Positions 6,196 to 20,903 of a stretch of 64,000 nucleotides of DNA are shown piece after piece (position 1 is the first letter of the stretch; every line of letters starts with the position of its first letter). Origin of the DNA: Polyangiaceae bacterium (GTDB lineage Bacteria; Myxococcota_A; Polyangia; Polyangiales; Polyangiaceae). Below the pieces are notes generated by a model. It was not told where the DNA came from. It worked only from the letters and a program-made list of their open reading frames with translations, and made no database searches. The stretch covers positions 96,715 through 160,714 of the forward strand of contig JABSRN010000006.1 of the NCBI GenBank assembly GCA_013214025.1, in the 5' to 3' direction. A program made the translations under genes and the position numbers.

Positions 6196-6912
6196 ATGAG
6201 CGCGAACATCATGATTACAGGCATCAGCCGAGGCATCGGCCGAGCGTTGGCCGAACACTGCTTGGGGCGCGGGGATGCCGTATTCGGCATCAGCCGAAGT
6301 TCCGTGAATCTCACGTCTCCTCCCGGTACCCTGAGAACAGTTCAGCACGACCTGTCTGATCTCGACGGCATTAAGACCCAACTGTTCGCACTACTGGACG
6401 GCCAACGCGAGTTGGACTTGCTCGTATTAAACGCGGGCATACTCGGTCCTATCCGCGACATGGTCGATACCCCGCTGAGCGATATCCGGCAACAGATGGA
6501 AGTGAACACCTGGGCCAACAAGACGATTCTCGACGGCTTGTTCAACAACGGCGTCCGGGTGCGACAAGTCGTTGGGCTGTCGTCCGGCGCAGCGGTGAGC
6601 GGCAGCCGGGGATGGGGAGGCTACGCGCTGTCCAAAGCAACCTTTCTCATGATGCTCAAGCTGTACGCAGCGGAAATCCCTGACACACATTTTTGCTCCT
6701 TGGCTCCCGGCTTGGTGGATACAAGTATGCAAGACTACCTGTGCGGTCTCGAAGCGAGCTACGGCGCAAAATTCCCGACCGTGGCGCGAATTCAGAGCGC
6801 CCGGGGCACGGACGGCATGCCTTCGCCTGAACAGCTCGCGCCTCGCTTACTGGACAAAATCGGAGAGCTATTAAAGGAGCCGAGCGGATCTTTTATCGAC
6901 ATCCGTCACTAA
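6196..6912 (+). CDS. Short-chain dehydrogenase/reductase (SDR)
   Basis: It has an ITGISRGIGRALA TGxxxGxG-type cofactor motif and a YALSKA YxxxK catalytic motif. Confidence 0.8.
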   Translation: MSANIMITGISRGIGRALAEHCLGRGDAVFGISRSSVNLTSPPGTLRTVQHDLSDLDGIKTQLFALLDGQRELDLLVLNAGILGPIRDMVDTPLSDIRQQMEVNTWANKTILDGLFNNGVRVRQVVGLSSGAAVSGSRGWGGYALSKATFLMMLKLYAAEIPDTHFCSLAPGLVDTSMQDYLCGLEASYGAKFPTVARIQSARGTDGMPSPEQLAPRLLDKIGELLKEPSGSFIDIRH

Positions 6913-11552: not shown

Positions 11553-12737
11553 ATGCGCCGCCTGCGCCCCCCACCGCCGGCAACAGGGTACGCTAGGATT
11601 CGAGGCGATTTGGAACCGCAGTCTGTCGATGTAGTGGTGGTGGGTGCTGGACTCATCGGGCTCGCCTGCGCCGCTCCCCTCGCCGCGAGCGGGCTCAGGG
11701 TGGTGCTAGTAGAACAGCACGCGTCGGCCGGCACCGAGACGTCCAGTCGCAACAGCGGCGTGATTCATGCGGGCCTTTACTACCCGCCGGGGTCGCTCAA
11801 GGCCGAGTGTTGTGTCGAAGGGGCCCACGCGCTCTACGAACTGTGCAGTCGCCACGGAGTGTCCTACAGACGAACCGGCAAACTGATCGTCGCCACCACC
11901 TCGGACGAAGAACGAGTCTTGACGGAATTGCTCGAGCGTGGACAACTCTGTGGGGCGCAGGGGATCGAGCTACTGGGCGGCGCCGAACTACGACGCCGGG
12001 AACCGCGGGTGCGCGCAACCGCCGCACTCTGGTCGCCGAACACCGGCATCATCGACCCCCACGAGCTGGTGCGTTTCTACCAAAATCAGTGCGCCGAAGC
12101 CGGCGTCACGCTGGCGTTTCGTAGCCAAGTCACAGCACTGCAATCAACTCCGACAGGATGGCTGGTAGACGTGCGGTCTGGGGACGAGACGCTGCAGCTG
12201 CGAAGTCGCTACCTGATCAACGCGGCGGGTCTACAGGGGCAACAATTGGCGGAAGCGGCTGGACTCGACACCCGGGCTCTTGGTTACGAACTGCATTATT
12301 GTCGCGGCGAGTACTTCAGCTTGGCCCCGTCCCTCGGCGCCTTGACTCGCCATCTAGTTTATCCCGTGCCCCAAACAGCGGGACTGGGCATCCATGTGAC
12401 CTTCGATCTCGGTGGGCGCTACACAGCCGGTCCCGACGCAAACTACGTAAACGCCATTGACTATCGGATCGATGAGACCGCCCGCAGCGCGTTTGCCCGG
12501 TCCTTGGCGCGATATCTGCCGGAAATTACCGAGGCACACCTCACGCCAGACTACGTGGGGATCCGTCCGAAGCTCCAAGGGCCGGACGACGAATTTCGAG
12601 ACTTCGTGATTCGCGAAGAGTCAAAACAGGGCGCCCCAGGGTTCGTCAACCTGCTCGGGATCGAATCGCCAGGATTGACTGCAAGTCCGAGCATCGCCCA
12701 ACGCGTAACTCAGTTGGTGGTATCTGGCGCGGTCTGA
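11553..12737 (+). CDS. FAD-dependent oxidoreductase (L-2-hydroxyglutarate oxidase LhgO-like)
   Basis: It has VDVVVVGAGLIGLA (GxGxxG) ..TSSRNSGVIHAGLYY.. The start is uncertain (11481, 11553 or TTG 11610). Confidence 0.7.
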   Translation: MRRLRPPPPATGYARIRGDLEPQSVDVVVVGAGLIGLACAAPLAASGLRVVLVEQHASAGTETSSRNSGVIHAGLYYPPGSLKAECCVEGAHALYELCSRHGVSYRRTGKLIVATTSDEERVLTELLERGQLCGAQGIELLGGAELRRREPRVRATAALWSPNTGIIDPHELVRFYQNQCAEAGVTLAFRSQVTALQSTPTGWLVDVRSGDETLQLRSRYLINAAGLQGQQLAEAAGLDTRALGYELHYCRGEYFSLAPSLGALTRHLVYPVPQTAGLGIHVTFDLGGRYTAGPDANYVNAIDYRIDETARSAFARSLARYLPEITEAHLTPDYVGIRPKLQGPDDEFRDFVIREESKQGAPGFVNLLGIESPGLTASPSIAQRVTQLVVSGAV

Positions 12738-13207
12738 ACACCCGGAAGCGTCAACACGGCGGGCCGCGCAACCACCCCTCGTACGCGAGCTGGCCTGTAG
12801 TGAAGACGAATTATTCAGCAGATCCTAGAATCAGCGCGGGCGCCCTGACGGAATCGACCCGCGGGCTGGCAACGCCTGGAAATCAGGCTGATTCCGGCGG
12901 TATTGCGGCGCAAAATGGGTTCCCCTCGCCCGCCGGAGGTTCTAAAGCATTTACAGAGCTCGTGAGGGGCGCACCACTCGCGGAGATCCTGTGTTCATAG
13001 CCAAACCTGTTGTCAAACCGCCGACGCCCCCAGCAGAAACTCTTCGCGATGCGCGCATATTGGCCGCAGAGCTGCCGCAACGCTGGCCCCCGATCGCAGC
13101 CGCCAAAACCCAGCCTGGCCAACACGATCGCCGATGCCCCAACACTCCTCCGAGCTCAGAAGACTGACCGCTGAACTCGCCTCAACATCCCGAAAGCTTT
13201 CCCAACG

Positions 13208-14854
13208 ATGAGCACCGAAACTGAATTAGCTGGCGCCACCGGCACCAGTAACCGCTCTTCCCGACGCGTCTCCCGGCGCTTAAAACTGGCGGCTAGCGCT
13301 CTGATCACCGGCGCTATCCTCGGTATCACCTCCGCCGCCTCGGCCTCCCCAGTTTTCGAACTCTTTGGCGACACTCTCGGTTCCGGTGGGCTCAACCCGC
13401 GATTCAATTCACCCGGCCCCGCGTCGACCTACTTCAACCCTTCCCTGCTGCCCCTAGAGCACGGCGCCGAAGGTGCTTTCGGTCTGTTGATCATGAAGCA
13501 GTCCATCGGTATTGAACTCGGCGCCCGAGTTCAGGCCAACGACGTACCCGTAGAAAAACGCAGCGCGGCCCCCGGACCGCTCGACGAAGTACGGTACCAA
13601 GACGCGGGCGGCTTCGGCTACTTCGGCACCATGCCGACGACGTACATCGTCGATGGTTGTGACCCCAAGGGCACCGCAACTCCAACCGGGGTCGAAGAGT
13701 GCTCTCGCGGCCGTGAACCAGGCGGTCCCCGCCAAAGCAACGGCAGCGGCGAGGCGACCTGGATATATACCCCCATCGGCTTGGTCCAGCCCCTCATCGA
13801 TCAGTATCTGGTGTTCGGCTTCTATGGCATCATGGGCATGGCAAAGTATCGCCTCCACGCATTCCATGTAGACGAGATGGAGCAATTTTTTACCAACAGC
13901 CTGCATCCGGAAATGTACTCGGACCGCATGACCGCCCAGGCCATCTCCTTTGGCTTCGGCAGCCAACTCGCGGACTGGGTATCCGTCGGCATCAGCTTCA
14001 GCCTGAACATCAACACGGTGGCCCACGGCAACGCTTTTATTTTTGACGCCGAGGACCAGAACGGCTCGCTTCGTCTATCGACAGACGCCAAAACCGAGAC
14101 GGGAATGAAACCCCATTTCGGCATCACCTTCCTGCCATCCGAAGATTTCATGCTCACGGCCACGGTACAGACGGAAACCTCTTTCCAGCTGACCACCCAC
14201 ATCGGCAACGACCTGCCTGACGGCGAGCACCAAGAGGCAGAACGCTTCAACGTTCACGATTTTATGCCCAACCAGGTGAGCTTCGGCGGCAGCTACACCA
14301 TCCCCTTCGAGGACAGTGATGGCGCTGTGAACATCACCGCCGGTGCGACCCGCAACCAGTGGACCGACTACATTGATCGACAGGGCGTTAACCCGACCGG
14401 CACCTACGCGTGGAGAAACACGTGGAATGTGAGTGCTGGCCTCCGCTACATCGTCGGAGACACCACTGTCTTCAGCGATATCCGCTACGTGCCCACGCCC
14501 GTTCCCCTGCAAACTGGCCGGACCAACTACGTCGACAACGACCGCACGGACGTGGTCGGCGGTCTCACACAACTCTTCGAAGCCGGCGGCCTGCTGCTGC
14601 GCGTCGGCGCCAACTTGCGAGGCTACATTCTTCACAGGCGGGCTCAAGACAAACTCCCCCCGGATACCAAAGCACTCAACGATGTCGACGAGGAACTGGT
14701 ATTCGATGAGTTCCCCGACGGTGCCATCGACAAGGCCCGAGGCGACGAATACGAGCGCTCGGACGGACTGCAAACGAACAACCCGGGCTGGCCGGGATTC
14801 GCCAGCAGCGGGGCACTGGTCGGCGGTGGCCTATCGCTCGCCATTCTGTACTAA
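13208..14854 (+). CDS. Putative outer-membrane beta-barrel protein
   Basis: It has a signal peptide (..ALITGAILGITSAASA|SP), alternating beta-strand-like segments, and a C-terminal ..GGGLSLAILY ending in an aromatic residue. Confidence 0.5.
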   Translation: MSTETELAGATGTSNRSSRRVSRRLKLAASALITGAILGITSAASASPVFELFGDTLGSGGLNPRFNSPGPASTYFNPSLLPLEHGAEGAFGLLIMKQSIGIELGARVQANDVPVEKRSAAPGPLDEVRYQDAGGFGYFGTMPTTYIVDGCDPKGTATPTGVEECSRGREPGGPRQSNGSGEATWIYTPIGLVQPLIDQYLVFGFYGIMGMAKYRLHAFHVDEMEQFFTNSLHPEMYSDRMTAQAISFGFGSQLADWVSVGISFSLNINTVAHGNAFIFDAEDQNGSLRLSTDAKTETGMKPHFGITFLPSEDFMLTATVQTETSFQLTTHIGNDLPDGEHQEAERFNVHDFMPNQVSFGGSYTIPFEDSDGAVNITAGATRNQWTDYIDRQGVNPTGTYAWRNTWNVSAGLRYIVGDTTVFSDIRYVPTPVPLQTGRTNYVDNDRTDVVGGLTQLFEAGGLLLRVGANLRGYILHRRAQDKLPPDTKALNDVDEELVFDEFPDGAIDKARGDEYERSDGLQTNNPGWPGFASSGALVGGGLSLAILY

Positions 14855-14856
14855 CA

Positions 14857-14880
14857 GGCCCGCAGAATCCGGCGCGGGCC
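14857..14880 (+). terminator. GC-rich hairpin just after the OMP stop codon
   Basis: GGCCCGC (14857..14863) pairs with GCGGGCC (14874..14880) across a 10-nt loop. There is no clear U-tract. Confidence 0.3.
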
Positions 14881-14946
14881 GCACGGACCCGCACAGCCAT
14901 TCCTTAGCCTATGGTCCCACCAGGCCGACCGAGCTACGATTCCGTG

Positions 14947-15141
14947 ATGGAGAGCCCCTGCATCCGAAATTGCTGCCTGCGCGACGATGACATTTGCATG
15001 GGTTGCTACCGTAGCCTCGACGAAATCAAGGGGTGGTCTGCGGCCAGCGAGGCTTTGAAGCACGAGTATTGCCGCAAAGCCGAAGCCCGTCGCGAACTCG
15101 CAGTTCGTTCCGGAACAGCGCCCCCCGTACTACGCCGCTAG
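14947..15141 (+). CDS. DUF1289-family small Cys-rich protein
   Basis: MESPCIRNCCLRDDDICMGCYRSLDEIKGW matches the SPCI..C....CxGCxR..xEIxxW signature. Confidence 0.75.
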   Translation: MESPCIRNCCLRDDDICMGCYRSLDEIKGWSAASEALKHEYCRKAEARRELAVRSGTAPPVLRR

Positions 15142-15229
15142 TGTGCGAATCTGGCACAGCTCTAAACGACGTGCTGTCAGGAAACGCTCGGTGGAGTAAC
15201 GCAGCCCAAGGGCTTTCCTGTTAGTCGGG

Positions 15230-16254
15230 TTGATCGGACCGGATAACGACAACGACGTCGAGTCAGCGGTGAACGGCGGCGCCCAAGAGCCGTTGGTTGC
15301 CGCCGTCCTCCACCAAGTGGTGGAACTAACCCACGCGCTCGAAGACCGCCGTCTGGGCCTGCTCGCCGAGTTCCCGAAGACAGAGCTCCTAAGCGTCAAC
15401 GCGTTGATCGAACTGCTCACCGATGTCGGCGTAGAGGACAGCGACGAAGGACTCAGCGACGGTATAGTTTGGCTCGGCGAAAACCAAGCCATCGTATACG
15501 CGAACCGCACCGCCATATCTTTGCTCGGCTATCGAAACCCGGGCGAAATCGTCCAGGAATCTGCCCGCAAACTATTGGGTCCGGTACTACATCTCGACAC
15601 CAACGAACCGCAAGAGCTAACCCCTCCTCGACCGGACGGGCTGGAGTTCACTCGCGACGTCATGGTCAGCGTCGGGGACGACAGCCCCACCGCATTTGGT
15701 CATCCACGACATCACCTTACAGAAAGCTCTCGAAAAGGAGCTACAGGCGTCCCGGGATCGCGCACTCGAACTGGCGCAATCCAAGTCGGACTTTCGCGCC
15801 TACATGAGCCACGAAATCCGAACTCCCATGAATGGCGTAATCGGAATGATCGACGCATTGCTGGAGACGGAGCTCACCGAGGAACAGAAGGAGCTCACAC
15901 GCGACGGATGCGCAGCTCGCGATTATGAACGACATACTCGGCTTTTCGAAACCCGAAAGCGGGCGAGTCGTTCTCGATTGGTTGGCCTTCAACGTTCATC
16001 GGAACGGCTGAGCTGCACAGTACAGATTGCTGACAACGGTCGCGTCGCCACCGAAATATACGAAAACGATGAATACGATTTGGTTCTAATGGCTTGCCAA
16101 ATTCCGGAGCTGGAAGGATTTGACGCCACCCGAGAAATTCGCCGTTCAGCGAAAGACCGAAGGTCCCGGCCCGGGCAACTGCATCACCACGCCATTCAAG
16201 AAAGAACAGCTCCTGGCCACGTTGACTCAATGCTCCGATGCCGCTGCAGGCTGA
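15230..16254 (+). pseudogene. Relic of a PAS - HisKA - (HATPase deleted) - receiver hybrid histidine kinase
   Basis: The PAS-like N-terminus is in frame 2. HisKA ([23 protein letters not shown]) is in frame 0. The second helix ([24 protein letters not shown]) is in frame 1 and ends at TGA 16009..16011. No HATPase_c domain is present. The receiver fragment ([36 protein letters not shown]) has Asp replaced by Ala. The tail [14 protein letters not shown] is in frame 1 and ends at TGA 16252..16254. Confidence 0.8.
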
Positions 16255-17521: not shown

Positions 17522-18150
17522 CTCAAGAGCTGGTTCAGCTCGGCCGACAAGCTTCGTTGGACGCGGCGGGTGGAGCTGCTCACGAACGCTATTGCTCCGG
17601 GACAACACGTGCTCGAGCTCGGCTGCGAATACAGGACGCTGACTGCTGCGCTTGCCGATCGGGAACCCAGTATAACCCCGGCAGATACGTCTGTCGCCTA
17701 CGTCCGTCAGGCGGCGCGGAAGGTTGAGTTTGAACACGTCAAGTTCTTGACGCTGAACCCAAGCGCGATGCCTTTCAAAACCGACAACTTTGATCTCGCC
17801 GGCGACATCTCTTTCATCTATCGCTGCCGGCCGGGTGTGCGGACACAATTGGCCCGTGCACTGCGACCCGGCGGTCGCGCGCTGTTCGCGGAGCCCAACC
17901 TGCTGAATCCACACATCGCCACCCGACAACCCACGCGACTCCGCCGAGATCACTACCAAAAGGCCTTCGGTTGGCTTTGCGCCACCACATTCTGTAGGCG
18001 GGATTCGGTAGTGTCACTATCACGCCCTTTGACTTTCTCCACCCTGGGCTGCCTCCCGAGTTCGTTGCTCTGGGGGACGATTGGGCAAGAAAACTTGAGC
18101 GGGTTCCACTGCTCCGAGAACTCCGCGGCTCGTTAATTATTGACACGCGG
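17522..18150 (+). pseudogene. Class I SAM-dependent methyltransferase, frameshifted with an in-frame TAG
   Basis: Frame 2 reads ..GQHVLELGCEYRTLTAALA (degenerate motif I) ..LRPGGRALFAEPNLLNP. The C-terminal part AGFGSVTITPFDFLHPGLPPEFVALGDDWARKLERVPLLRELRGSLIIDTR is in frame 1, directly after TAG 17995..17997. The intermediate segment RDSAEITTKR is in the third frame. Confidence 0.6.
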
Positions 18151-18200
18151 CTCAGAGCTCAGAGCTTGCCAAGCGCGCGGGACAATGACACATTTTCTTC

Positions 18201-18545
18201 ATGCTCGAACTCATCTGCAAACGGACCTGAAGCACCTGTCGCAAAGCGGTCGCTTTGCTGGAGGAAAACGCTATCGAGTATCGGTACCGCGACTACACCC
18301 AGGAGCCCCTCAGTCGGACTGAGCTCAAAAAAGTGTTTCAGCTGCTGGGAAAAAAGCCGGCCGAGCTATTGCGAAAAAACGACAAGGCCTACAAAGAATT
18401 AGGGCTCACCGGCGAAGAGTCCAATGCAAAACTGATCGCCCATATGGCGGAGCACCCCACCCTGCTCCAACGTCCCATCGGTATATTGAATGGCAAGGCA
18501 GCCGTCGGTCGGCCTGTTGAGAATTTGCTCGAACTCATCAAGTAG
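18201..18545 (+). CDS. ArsC/Spx-family (arsenate-reductase-like) redox protein with predicted selenocysteine (UxxC) at codon 10
   Basis: ATG 18201 is the first start after the upstream in-frame stop. Reading through TGA 18228..18230 gives MLELICKRT-U-STCRKAVALLEENAIEYRYRDY..LLRKNDKAYKELGL..HPTLLQRPI... The TGA aligns with the catalytic Cys of the ArsC/YffB N-terminal motif (..NCDTCRKA / ..PACGTSRN). The ORF track only reports the 3' part (18255..18545), in the same frame. Confidence 0.75.
18235..18264 (+). promoter_or_regulatory. Bacterial SECIS-like stem-loop downstream of UGA 18228
   Basis: The upper stem GCAAAGC (18241..18247) pairs perfectly with GCUUUGC (18252..18258). The apical loop is GGUC (18248..18251). 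Possible lower pairs are C18240-G18260 and U18239-G18261 (with U18259 bulged), and CCU 18235..18237 with AGG 18262..18264. The loop G-U lies about 21-22 nt from the U of UGA. Confidence 0.65.
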
Positions 18546-18624
18546 CGGTGCCTCTCCCGGTCCAAATCCCCAGGGGTCGTCGGGATTCTATTTGCTCTAC
18601 GGATCTAAAGCGCTAGAGTGCCCA

Positions 18625-19914
18625 ATGTCGATGAGGGCCATAACTACTCAGACGCTTGGGAACGATCGCGAGCCCAATCAACCAACGCCCAATCAGCCAA
18701 CACTTGCGTCGGCCTACCAACGCGTGCGCGCCGGAACCGAACACCTCAGCGCCCCGCTGAGTGCCGAGGATCAGACGGCCCAGAGCATGCAGGACGCCAG
18801 CCCCACCAAGTGGCACCGGGCACACACCACGTGGTTCTTCGAACAATTTGTCCTGGCGGTTCACGACCCCAGTTATGTACCGGACGCGCAGTCGTCGAAG
18901 CTGTTCAACAGCTACTACAATAGCGTCGGCACGCCCTTCCCGCGACACCAACGCGGGCTGTTGACGCGACCCAGTAGCGCTGAAGTCACGACGTACCGCC
19001 AGCGAGTGGACCGCGCGATGGTCTCGCTCCTGCGGGGAGACATCTCAACGTCGTTGGCTAGCATCGTTGTCTTAGGCTTCCACCACGAACAACAACACCA
19101 AGAGTTGTTGTTGACCGACGTCAAACACCTGTTGTCGCACCACCCAGATCAGCCAGCCTACATGAAGGTTGCAGCGCCTCCCGACGCCGACGAACGACCG
19201 CTCACCTACGCCCGCATACCCGGCGCCTGCTATCGGCTGGGCCATGCGGGCAAGGGCTTCGCCTTCGACAACGAAGGACCGCTTCACGACCGACTGATTG
19301 ACGAATTCGACATTGCTAGCCGACTGGTTTCCGAAGCGGAATACCAAGACTTTATCGATGACGGAGGCTACAGCCGACCCGAACTCTGGCTGAGCGCCGG
19401 TTGGGACGCCGTCCGGAAGCATGATTGGACAGCGCCTCTGTACTGGACGGCAAGCCGTGAGCAGTATCTATACACCATGAACGGTGCTCGGCCACTAGGC
19501 CGCCGCAGCCCCGTGACGCACGTCAGTTACTACGAGGCCGACGCCTATGCGCGTTGGTCGGATGCACGGCTGAGCACCGAATTTGAATGGGAGGTAGCAT
19601 GCCGCCACTTGAAGGAAACGCCTCCAATTGGGGGGGGGCCAGCGCTGCACCCGGAGACTCAGCAGACCGGAGCTGACTTTTTCGGCAGCTGTTGGCAATG
19701 GACTCAGTCCGACTACGCGCCCTACCCTCGCTTCCGCGCGTCGCCGGATGCCGTCGGCGAATACAACGGCAAATTCATGAGCGGGCAGTACGTATTACGC
19801 GGAAGCAGTGCGCTCACTCCGGACGGCCATGCCCGCCCGACCTACCGCAATTTTTTCCCGCCCACGGCACGCTGGCAATTTAGCGGCATTCGCCTAGCTA
19901 GAGACGTGCCTTGA
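18625..19914 (+). CDS. egtB: Ergothioneine biosynthesis sulfoxide synthase EgtB (DinB_2 + FGE-sulfatase domains)
   Basis: It has ..DASPTKWHRAHTTWFFEQFVL.., HHEQQHQELLLTDVKHLL, and a C-terminal FGE-like domain (..YYEADAYARW.., ..YVLRGSSALT..). I placed the start at ATG 18625. Confidence 0.85.
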   Translation: MSMRAITTQTLGNDREPNQPTPNQPTLASAYQRVRAGTEHLSAPLSAEDQTAQSMQDASPTKWHRAHTTWFFEQFVLAVHDPSYVPDAQSSKLFNSYYNSVGTPFPRHQRGLLTRPSSAEVTTYRQRVDRAMVSLLRGDISTSLASIVVLGFHHEQQHQELLLTDVKHLLSHHPDQPAYMKVAAPPDADERPLTYARIPGACYRLGHAGKGFAFDNEGPLHDRLIDEFDIASRLVSEAEYQDFIDDGGYSRPELWLSAGWDAVRKHDWTAPLYWTASREQYLYTMNGARPLGRRSPVTHVSYYEADAYARWSDARLSTEFEWEVACRHLKETPPIGGGPALHPETQQTGADFFGSCWQWTQSDYAPYPRFRASPDAVGEYNGKFMSGQYVLRGSSALTPDGHARPTYRNFFPPTARWQFSGIRLARDVP

Positions 19915-20903
19915 GCCTCAAATTTACGCCAACCGCTCCTTCCCAACTGAGCCCATCCGGCATTCTCGATCTGAGTCCCGAGGCGGGTGACTTGATCGCC
20001 GACGGCCTGGCGGGTCTGCAGCGATCGACCAAGACGCTCCCCAGCAAATACTTTTACGACAAGCGCGGGAGCGAGCTCTTCGAAACGATCACCACGCTGC
20101 CCGAATATTACGTCACTCGTACCGAACTCGACATCATGGCGGAGAGTGCGTCGGAGATGGGCGCACTGCTTGGCGAACACGGGCTGCTAATCGAGTTTGG
20201 TTCAGGATCCGGACAAAAGACACGTGAGCTACTCAGCGCCCTGCCAGAACCTGCCGGATGCATCCTGATCGACATCAGCAAGAGCGCATTGAGCGGCAGT
20301 ATCGAAAAACTCGAAGAAGCGTTTCCGTCGCTGCCCATCTTCGGTGTCTGCGCCGACTACACCCGTTCGCTCCAATTGCCAGAGGTCGGTACTAACGCGA
20401 AACGGCGCATCGCCTACTTCCCGGGCAGCACCCTAGGTAACTTCTCGAACCATGAGGCCCGAGTCTTTCTGCAGCGCACCGCAGCGCTCCTGGGGCCGGG
20501 CGGAGCACTACTGTTGGGTGTGGACCGGGTCAAAGCAGTAGGCCTCTTGGAAAGGGCCTACGACGACGCACGGGGGGTCACCGCAGCCTTCAATTTCAAC
20601 TTGCTGACTCAACTCAACGCCAACGGCGCCAACTTCGTTCTCGATCGCTTTCGGCATTCCGCGGTGTTCAACGCCGCTGAGTCGCGCGTCGAAATGCACT
20701 TGGTGAGTCAGGTCGAGCAGACGGTGGAACTGGGTAGCGCCACCATCCGATTCGACGCGGGCGAGTCGATCCGAACAGAGATGTCCCACAAGTACACACT
20801 AGAGGCTATCCGTGAACTCGCCGGCTCAGCGGACATGACCCTCGAACACCACTGGTCCGACAAGCAAGATTGGTTCTCCGTGTGTTATCTGAGTTGCCGC
20901 TGA
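19911..20903 (+). CDS. egtD: L-histidine N-alpha-methyltransferase EgtD
   Basis: It has ..LPSKYFYDKRGSELFETITTLPEYYVTRTELDIM.., IEFGSGSGQKT. The TTG start overlaps the egtB TGA (TTGA, 19911..19914). Confidence 0.85.
   Translation: MSLKFTPTAPSQLSPSGILDLSPEAGDLIADGLAGLQRSTKTLPSKYFYDKRGSELFETITTLPEYYVTRTELDIMAESASEMGALLGEHGLLIEFGSGSGQKTRELLSALPEPAGCILIDISKSALSGSIEKLEEAFPSLPIFGVCADYTRSLQLPEVGTNAKRRIAYFPGSTLGNFSNHEARVFLQRTAALLGPGGALLLGVDRVKAVGLLERAYDDARGVTAAFNFNLLTQLNANGANFVLDRFRHSAVFNAAESRVEMHLVSQVEQTVELGSATIRFDAGESIRTEMSHKYTLEAIRELAGSADMTLEHHWSDKQDWFSVCYLSCR

Follow-up and report, generated by a model that had tools for sequence, protein, structure and literature searches.

We conclude that the selenoprotein gene and the egtB–egtD pair described here are probably two independent, individually known units that an arrangement specific to this lineage has brought next to each other, the selenoprotein being neither a conserved nor a dedicated component of ergothioneine synthesis. 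Their adjacency occurs in one narrow lineage only, and hence the selenoprotein gene is most likely an ordinary neighbour rather than a dedicated pathway partner. The window, the whole 64,000-nucleotide stretch of Polyangiaceae DNA that was analysed, carries the three genes in one orientation between oppositely oriented genes for an NAD-epimerase and an AMP-binding enzyme, both on the minus strand (Table 1). The original prediction had named a co-oriented ArsC-like gene, egtB and egtD; the positions of the open reading frames confirm the orientation, and matches to PF03960, TIGR03440 and TIGR03438 confirm the identities. The SAM-methyltransferase reading frame further upstream, which gives generic methyltransferase Pfam matches only (residues ~9–114) and has no equivalent in the syntenic relative L135, is a generic or decaying neighbour.

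Table 1. Features of the selenoprotein–egtB–egtD region, in window coordinates
Feature	Position	Strand	Description or basis
ArsC/YfgD-clade selenoprotein gene	18201..18545	+	114 codons; motif C6-x3-U10-S-T-C13
UGA selenocysteine codon, residue 10	18228..18230	+	alignment with Cys of homologues
Bacterial SECIS hairpin	18241..18258	+	fold; conservation and covariation among homologous loci
Spacer, selenoprotein gene to egtB	18546..18630	+	alignment with relative L135
egtB, type II (cysteine-dependent) hercynine sulfoxide synthase, 427 aa	18631..19914	+	by TIGR03440 and structure matches
egtD, histidine N-alpha-methyltransferase, 330 aa	19911..20903	+	by TIGR03438 and PF10017
Generic class I SAM-methyltransferase ORF, 188 aa, upstream	17570..18136	+	outside the conserved block

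Judged by comparison of homologous loci, the in-frame TGA at codon 10 is a genuine site of selenocysteine recoding. With TGA translated as U, the reading frame runs from ATG 18201 through MLELICKRT, the TGA and STCRKA to a TAG stop at 18543–18545. The N-terminus M-[IL]-E-L-I-C-x-x-T is conserved, the nine codons 5' of the TGA being kept across phyla, and codon 10 reads TGA in 75 and TGC in 4 of 79 genome loci. The predicted hairpin begins 10 nt past the UGA, its 7-bp stem (GCAAAGC/GCUUUGC) being capped by a GGUC loop; at the nucleotide level it is kept in 75/75 Sec forms, and synonymous changes disrupt it in three of the four Cys forms. In the stem alignment 99.6% of the cells are paired, and compensatory changes occur at two pairs, one of them the A–U pair of the window itself. 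The genome also encodes selA (428 bits), selB (311 bits), selD (255 bits) and tRNA-Sec (selC, at C1:16019–16118). It is the conserved N-terminus, the cysteine in a minority of homologues, the covarying SECIS and this machinery together that lead us to regard the selenoprotein as real, in agreement with the original prediction.

Were the TGA instead a true stop, the product would be a 96-aa protein from TTG 18255, in frame with the ATG 18201 reading, or the gene would be a pseudogene. Annotation speaks for this, as gene callers would start at that TTG and have annotated only a 94–97-aa ORF here and in many other genomes; the 547 homologues comprise truncated (Sec) forms of ~95 aa and Cys forms of 112–117 aa. 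We consider a true stop extremely improbable, given codons conserved across phyla ahead of the TGA, the replacement of Sec by Cys in some homologues, a hairpin with synonymous-site conservation and covariation, and a complete Sec machinery; the 96-aa product would moreover be devoid of the catalytic N-terminus.

The selenoprotein matches the ArsC family PF03960 at 60.6 bits, above the gathering threshold of 24. Its best NCBIfam match, TIGR00014 (arsC, glutaredoxin type), scores 90.6 bits and remains below the equivalog cut-off of 106.05, as do TIGR01617 (Spx/MgsR; 60 bits, cut-off 75.05) and NF041106 ('arsenate reductase-like' (seleno)protein; 17.1 bits, cut-off 85) with respect to theirs. Residues U10, R58, R91 and R104 align with C12, R60, R94 and R107 of R773 ArsC, the sequence used having 141 aa, the length found in 1I9D. 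At the same time, U10 and C13 coincide with the CxxC of Spx, U10 corresponding to Cys10 (PDB 1Z3E). These sequence matches to solved ArsC and Spx structures suffice to establish the fold. Cys6, Cys13 and the three arginines are invariant in the family, and the invariant triad points to a substrate that is anionic or oxyanion-like.

Could the selenoprotein be a bona fide arsenate reductase serving arsenic detoxification, unconnected with ergothioneine? The top NCBIfam match, the nucleophile position and the invariant counterparts of Arg60, Arg94 and Arg107 are all in keeping with such a role, and the closest solved structures, 3F0I and 3RDW, are annotated as arsenate reductases. These are YfgD-like proteins, however, and are not known to function as arsenate reductases. 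The score below the equivalog cut-off also argues against the assignment, as does the combination of an additional invariant Cys6 with Cys13 into a Spx-like UxxC centre that is absent from glutaredoxin-coupled ArsC. No ars-operon context was seen in any of 79 selenoprotein loci, and the genome has no ACR3 (best match 27 bits, cut-off 283); a search for ArsB returned weak superfamily-level matches at 49 bits, with an E. coli control that also gave no match. More generally, clustering of the ORFs within 4 kb revealed no conserved neighbourhood, the largest cluster covering 7/79 loci, and genomic context thus offers no functional clue to the selenoprotein. On balance we consider a bona fide arsenate reductase unlikely, even though ArsC-type selenoproteins have been catalogued as 'arsenate reductase' (PMC1088965, PMC2398784).

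The two egt genes form a module of a well-defined type. EgtB scores 513 bits against TIGR03440 (cut-off 360), and EgtD 374 bits against TIGR03438 (cut-off 290.9) and 335 bits against PF10017. EgtB matches Chloracidobacterium EgtB (6QKI, 6O6L, 8QF6) at 398 bits as opposed to 113 bits for the type I enzyme 4X8B, and it contains the NSYY tyrosine pair, FNSYY being conserved. By homology, it is a cysteine-using type II enzyme and not a gamma-Glu-Cys-dependent type I enzyme, which accounts for the lack of egtA and egtC and leaves no gap in the pathway to be filled on their account. A profile search of the neighbouring genes found none of egtA, egtC and egtE adjoining the pair, as had been remarked from the sequence, and in the genome at large no dedicated EgtE was detected (best match 55 bits, cut-off 400). 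Assignment of EgtB as the selenoneine synthase SenA was rejected: its score against NF041186, 331 bits, lies below the cut-off of 420, and its neighbours are egtD and unrelated genes, with neither senB nor senC.

The start of egtB could be refined by comparison with the closest relative, in which ATG 18625 is replaced by ACG, making ATG 18631 the conserved start; P0123, at 427 aa, agrees with this choice. A longer ORF, 18490–19914, which overlaps the 3' end of the selenoprotein gene, was discarded as egtB, as homologues align from about its residue 26 and the relative starts at the position of 18631. The predicted TTGA overlap between the two egt genes is present as described, the egtB stop occupying 19912–19914 and the egtD TTG start lying at 19911, and L135 has the same 4-nt overlap. 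Among metagenomic egtB loci, egtD adjoins egtB in 66/80; no conserved accessory gene surrounds egtBD in these 80 loci, the largest cluster comprising 4. The egtBD genes are a self-contained pair.

Based on the co-orientation of the three genes between oppositely oriented neighbours and the absence of a terminator from the 85 nt ahead of egtB, their co-transcription is plausible. The gap of 79 nt given originally holds for ATG 18625, whereas measurement to the conserved start yields 85 nt. The accompanying claim that no terminator intervenes stands: a terminator scan found no site on the plus strand of the spacer, the fold of which is unremarkable (z=+0.72), and an Rfam scan of 17900–19000 returned no relevant family. 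The first ~30 nt of the spacer are poorly conserved and the last ~45 nt (18576–18619) are ~91% identical to L135; this 3' part may hold a promoter or leader for egtB. A promoter scan detected no plus-strand site over threshold. Candidate promoters can be read by eye from conserved blocks, TTGCCA-17-CACATT upstream of the selenoprotein gene (weak) and TTGCTC-16-TAGAGT upstream of egtB.

Across genomes, the selenoprotein and egt genes are not linked. Neither egtB nor egtD lies near the selenoprotein gene in 79 loci of other genomes, in 28 loci of the same phylum, or on six metagenomic contigs that carry the nearest homologues (72–79% identity) beside unrelated genes. In the two genomes of the same family that possess both genes (G027 and G008), these are on different contigs. 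Conversely, an ArsC-like gene was found at none of 109 egtB loci (29 from relatives, 80 metagenomic). Co-occurrence is likewise unremarkable, with egtD present in 21/38 selenoprotein-positive and 165/363 selenoprotein-negative genomes (Fisher p=0.31), 17 of the 38 positive genomes thus having the selenoprotein without egtD. Outside the window, the trio exists on the L135 contig only, at 81% DNA identity, and there synteny extends across both flanks, with flanking proteins 94–95% identical. The block's origin was explored through the downstream AMP-binding gene, whose orthologues in 60 relatives reach no more than 52% identity and are non-syntenic. A conserved cluster of ArsC-like gene, egtB and egtD would be expected to recur in independent lineages, or its genes to co-occur across genomes, and we found neither. 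These counts and the co-occurrence test speak against the original proposal of a UxxC protein dedicated to EgtB and EgtD as redox partner; the neighbourhood comparison put forward with it shows conservation no wider than genus-level synteny.

It is conceivable that the selenoprotein was recruited to the pathway within this genus, being co-transcribed with egtBD and perhaps reducing ergothioneine sulfenic acid or disulfide. There is a chemical rationale, in that an EgtE-type lyase frees ergothioneine sulfenic acid and a reductant is needed after C–S cleavage; PMC4493562 names no dedicated enzyme for this step. Co-orientation, the lack of a terminator and preservation of the arrangement in L135 fit such a recruitment. 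A further hint comes from a sister egtBD clade of the same order (EgtB 57–58% identity), in which a CPFC glutaredoxin-like gene has independently come to overlap the 3' end of egtD. That protein, encoded at 6233–6787 of L168, is 184 aa long and carries a classic CPFC glutaredoxin domain behind an N-terminal domain of unknown kind. The overlapping egtB–egtD–glutaredoxin-like arrangement occurs in seven genomes of one genus and in two further loci, L166 and L168. The genome of the window has neither this gene nor a dedicated EgtE, and under recruitment the selenoprotein would be a functional analogue of the glutaredoxin-like protein.

We nevertheless judge recruitment quite unlikely. The adjacency is seen only at the level of genus synteny, where unrelated flanking genes are kept as well; it is missing from the 107 other loci of the selenoprotein family, from the contigs of the nearest homologues and from the 109 other egtB loci, and the selenoprotein frequently occurs without egtD. 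The glutaredoxin-like gene itself adjoins the pair in just 7/17 egtD-positive genomes of its genus, and the promoter- or leader-like conservation of the 3' half of the spacer would permit independent transcription of egtB. A broader version, in which type II egtBD modules recruited a small thioredoxin-fold protein at least twice (a UxxC ArsC-like and a CPFC glutaredoxin-like one) as the missing reductant that returns ergothioneine sulfenic acid or disulfide to the thione, appears to us more doubtful still; if it held, no enzyme before the selenoprotein would have been assigned to this reduction. Thioredoxin-fold redox proteins make up roughly 1–2% of bacterial genes; on this rough estimate, a few percent of independent egtBD lineages should have a redox neighbour. 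Two such lineages among the ~110 egtB loci sampled are what chance predicts. For any single lineage, the chance adjacency of the selenoprotein gene and egtB is improbable (~2/gene number), and this pair was picked post hoc.

We therefore return to two independent units and propose the following model for their function. UGA-10 would be read as selenocysteine by means of the products of selA, selB, selC and selD and of the hairpin that begins 10 nt further on. By homology, Sec10, at the N-terminal end of helix 1, would be the nucleophile, and Cys13, at the Spx-like CxxC position, would resolve the adduct to a selenenylsulfide, presumably re-reduced by a thioredoxin-type system. The selenoprotein would serve as a stand-alone, general-purpose thioredoxin-fold reductase of the ArsC/YfgD clade with no fixed genomic partner. 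Separately, EgtD is predicted to trimethylate histidine and EgtB to join hercynine directly to cysteine with O2, after which a non-dedicated PLP C–S lyase and cellular thiols may complete the pathway. In the genus of the window and L135, the three genes could well be transcribed together.

What would a functional link have meant? Ergothioneine synthesis ends in a reduction that is currently ascribed to unspecified thiols of the cell; a real link would put an enzyme to this step and give a widespread, uncharacterised selenoprotein clade its first physiological role. The analysis corrects the annotation of a selenoprotein that gene callers have shortened here and in many other genomes, and it classes the egtBD pair as a cysteine-dependent type II module. 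It also provides a worked example of a striking adjacency that is plain genus-level synteny.

Compared with known systems, the egt pair is conventional. EgtB shares with the type II enzyme of Chloracidobacterium thermophilum (6QKI, 6O6L) the NSYY pair and a match over its full length at 398 bits, and the locus has the two-gene egtB–egtD layout, without egtA or egtC, of type II modules, from which it differs in nothing essential, only in the lineage-specific selenoprotein gene upstream. Like the sister-clade operon, it places a small thioredoxin-fold, dithiol-type protein beside type II egtBD. Beyond the fold, however, the two proteins are not homologous, and the glutaredoxin-like gene follows egtD, with an overlap, whereas the selenoprotein gene lies upstream of egtB; the former arrangement is limited to part of one genus.

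The selenoprotein can be set beside several relatives. ArsC-type selenoproteins, known from bioinformatics alone (PMC1088965, PMC2398784, PMC13188914), include the UxxS TIGR00014 type, the GOS 'Arsenate reductase 2' (UxxC, cd03032) and NF041106 (UxxC), and have in common the ArsC/Spx fold, Sec at the position of the catalytic Cys and a SECIS immediately 3' of the UGA. The clade described here combines a TIGR00014-like body and Arg triad with UxxC in place of UxxS and an extra invariant Cys6; with the GOS type it was compared by description. R773 ArsC (1I9D) and the YfgD-like proteins (3F0I, 3RDW) share its fold, nucleophile position and Arg60/Arg94/Arg107 triad. Unlike them, the selenoprotein has Sec for Cys12 and a resolving Cys in the +3 position that Ser or Thr occupies in ArsC, besides standing outside any ars operon and below the equivalog cut-off. 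With Spx/MgsR (1Z3E) it shares the fold and an N-terminal CxxC falling exactly at U10-x-x-C13; in contrast to Spx it is shorter, at 114 aa, lacks the Spx C-terminal region and keeps the Arg triad of ArsC.

The ArsC-like gene lying directly upstream of egtB and egtD, a position confirmed by ORF and frame reading, encodes, on the sequence evidence, a real selenoprotein. With translation table 11 the sole ORF is one of 96 aa starting at TTG 18255. Database searches returned 547 homologues, which comprise entries of ~95 aa versus entries of 112–117 aa; the latter carry Cys at the position of the window's TGA, and the former are truncated gene calls. Sampling 79 genome loci from Myxococcota, Acidobacteriota, Gemmatimonadota and others gave TGA at codon 10 in 75 and TGC in the other 4; the nine codons before it show conservation, and so do Cys6 and Cys13. 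Every Sec form conserves the SECIS hairpin at the nucleotide level, and in three of the four Cys forms the synonymous positions of the hairpin have drifted. In the hairpin alignment, 99.6% of cells are paired, with compensatory changes at two pairs, one of them a replacement of G-C by A-U in the window itself; the SECIS of L135, the nearest relative contig with the same trio, is identical to the window's. The genome (5.77 Mb, 184 contigs) also contains the Sec machinery, namely selB (311 bits), selD (255 bits), selA (428 bits) and tRNA-Sec. Conserved codons, hairpin covariation and this machinery jointly support the selenocysteine recoding put forward in the original prediction. The selD match (C152:28915–29862, L009) sits within a 773-aa open frame, suggestive of a selenophosphate synthetase fused to another domain.

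Loss of the N-terminus from the ArsC-like selenoprotein is a systematic annotation gap: most public assemblies (L011–L089) annotate only a 94–97-aa form lacking it, labeled "arsenate reductase" or "ArsC/Spx/MgsR family protein". One in-frame TGA is likewise present in many stand-alone glutaredoxin-domain matches from the same phylum (e.g., G411:C879:2201–2479, G113:C16:32742–32996 and G184:C31:11593–11862), and these are probably Grx-like selenoproteins shortened by gene callers.

Features of the selenoprotein–egtB–egtD locus and of related loci (window positions unless a contig is named)
Feature	Position	Strand	Remarks
NAD-epimerase	flanking gene	-	
SAM-methyltransferase ORF, generic, 188 aa	17570-18136, upstream	+	generic domain matches only, first ~114 residues
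Selenoprotein ORF, 114 codons	ATG 18201 to TAG 18543-18545	+	TGA-readthrough translation MLELICKRT-TGA(18228-18230)-STCRKAVALLEEN...
SECIS hairpin	starts ten nt 3' of UGA		7-bp stem, GGUC loop
egtB	conserved start ATG 18631, TGA 19912-19914	+	TIGR03440, 513 bits (cut-off 360)
egtD	start TTG 19911	+	TIGR03438, 374 bits (cut-off 290.9)
AMP-binding enzyme	flanking gene	-	
selB, selA, tRNA-Sec	contig C1:12644-16118 (selB 12644-14599, selA 14596-16074, tRNA-Sec 16019-16118)	-	one cluster
Grx-like gene, sister clade	L166:6223-6783, L168:6233-6787; also L106, L169-L175		overlaps egtD 3' end

Pfam and NCBIfam profile matches uphold the assignments of all three genes. EgtB keeps the NSYY tyrosine pair and scores 398 bits against the cysteine-dependent type II enzyme of Chloracidobacterium thermophilum, versus 113 bits against the mycobacterial gamma-glutamylcysteine-dependent enzyme. 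Because a type II EgtB does not need egtA and egtC, their absence is expected. A dedicated EgtE was not found in the genome (best match 55 bits versus 400), and egtBD-only organisms usually do without one. At 66 of the 80 metagenomic egtB loci sampled, egtD adjoins egtB, and any other recurring gene is limited to four loci at most. A SelD-like gene lies directly 5' of an EgtB homologue at three metagenomic loci, one of them L199 (2212–3417), an arrangement that may represent a selenoneine-type cluster; L199 also holds a second, distant EgtB-like gene.

The egtB stop codon is overlapped by the egtD start in the TTGA junction that had been described. The proposed 79-nt gap to the selenoprotein gene is correct from the first egtB ATG (18625); in L135, the closest relative, this codon reads ACG, and the conserved start is therefore the second ATG. 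That start gives 427 aa, as in the database protein P0123, and widens the gap to 85 nt. A 474-aa ORF from 18490, considered as egtB, draws no support from homologues. As anticipated, no terminator-like site was found on the plus strand of the spacer; its fold is not unusual (z = +0.72), and it has no Rfam match. The 3' 45 nt (18576–18619), which include TTGCTC-16-TAGAGT upstream of egtB, are ~91% identical to L135, compared with ~50% for the ~30 nt after the selenoprotein stop, a pattern from which we infer that this segment may be an egtB-proximal promoter or leader. Further upstream, the SAM-methyltransferase ORF is missing from the otherwise syntenic L135 and therefore probably reflects an indel or gene decay.

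The proposal that the selenoprotein is a dedicated redox partner of EgtB and EgtD is not supported by its neighborhoods in relatives, where no conserved adjacency extends beyond genus-level synteny. egtB or egtD lies within 6 kb of the selenoprotein gene in 0 of 79 cross-phylum loci and within 1.5 kb in 0 of 28 loci fetched from same-phylum genomes, and an ArsC-like gene occurs at none of 29 egtB loci of relatives and none of the 80 metagenomic ones. The selenoprotein is carried by 38 of 401 same-phylum genomes, with egtD present in 21 of these and in 165 of the 363 others (Fisher p = 0.31); 17 genomes thus keep the selenoprotein without egtD. Its nearest homologues (72–79% identity) adjoin unrelated genes (TPM-phosphatase, pseudouridine synthase, HD_4/methyltransferase, DUF1990/DLH), and L011, a locus at 75% identity, has no egt genes. 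Within the same family, only 2 of 36 genomes have an orthologue, both with egtB on a different contig. The trio recurs on just two contigs: L137, which is 99.9% identical and hence the same organism, and L135, at 81% DNA identity with both flanking genes syntenic (94–95% protein identity). The latter recurrence is genus-level synteny and is uninformative on selection for linkage. EgtB identity drops from 82% in L135 to 58% in the next homologue, which marks the lineage as isolated.

Could the selenoprotein have been recruited to the ergothioneine pathway in this lineage alone? We consider this improbable. Ergothioneine sulfenic acid, the species that the EgtE reaction sets free, requires a reductant, assumed in vivo to be unspecified thiols (PMC4493562). 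The three genes make up an island of one orientation with no terminator in it, but the 3' conservation in the spacer fits a promoter or leader belonging to egtB. In the sister clade, the next-closest egtBD clade (contigs L166 and L168 together with seven genomes that belong to one genus of the same order), the start of a 184-aa protein (184–186 aa across loci) overlaps the egtD end; it consists of a ~95-aa N-terminal domain of no known family and a C-terminal CPFC glutaredoxin domain, and the window genome has no homologue of it. However, this gene adjoins egtD in only 7 of the 17 egtD-positive genomes of its genus, a ~52% homologue being located elsewhere in five further genomes of that genus, and none of the 80 metagenomic loci shows the adjacency. 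Since by our estimate ~1–2% of genes encode thioredoxin-fold redox proteins, two such neighbors in ~110 egtB loci is roughly chance. The best explanation, which we hold with good confidence, is that the selenoprotein and egtBD are two individually known units, juxtaposed in one narrow lineage.

The full selenoprotein matches Pfam ArsC (PF03960, 60.6 bits) and, weakly, Glutaredoxin. Its top NCBIfam model, arsC TIGR00014, scores 90.6 bits, below the cut-off of 106, and it also falls under the cut-offs for Spx/MgsR (60 versus 75 bits) and NF041106 "ArsC family (seleno)protein" (17 versus 85 bits). We do not favor a classical arsenic-resistance enzyme, as ars genes are absent from the selenoprotein neighborhoods at 79 loci and ACR3 was not found in the genome. 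A search of the genome for ArsB gave weak, superfamily-level matches (49 bits). ArsC-type selenoproteins have been on record since 2005/2008, as "arsenate reductase" (UxxS) and "arsenate reductase 2" (UxxC) (PMC1088965, PMC2398784), and appear in a 2026 review (PMC13188914); the literature on them yielded no experimentally tested function and no ergothioneine link. Among solved structures, the nearest are 3F0I and 3RDW, YfgD-like proteins labeled "arsenate reductases"; Spx and R773 ArsC come next. In alignment, Sec10 takes the position of Cys12 in R773 ArsC, and Arg58, Arg91 and Arg104, which are invariant in the family, match the arsenate-binding Arg60, Arg94 and Arg107 of R773 ArsC; the CxxC of Spx lines up with Sec10 and Cys13. 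Based on these alignments, the selenoprotein is predicted to join an anion pocket of the ArsC type to a UxxC center resembling that of thioredoxin. By analogy with the chemistry of ArsC- and Spx-type families, Sec10 would attack the substrate, Cys13 would resolve the adduct to a selenenylsulfide, and a thioredoxin-type system would regenerate the protein.
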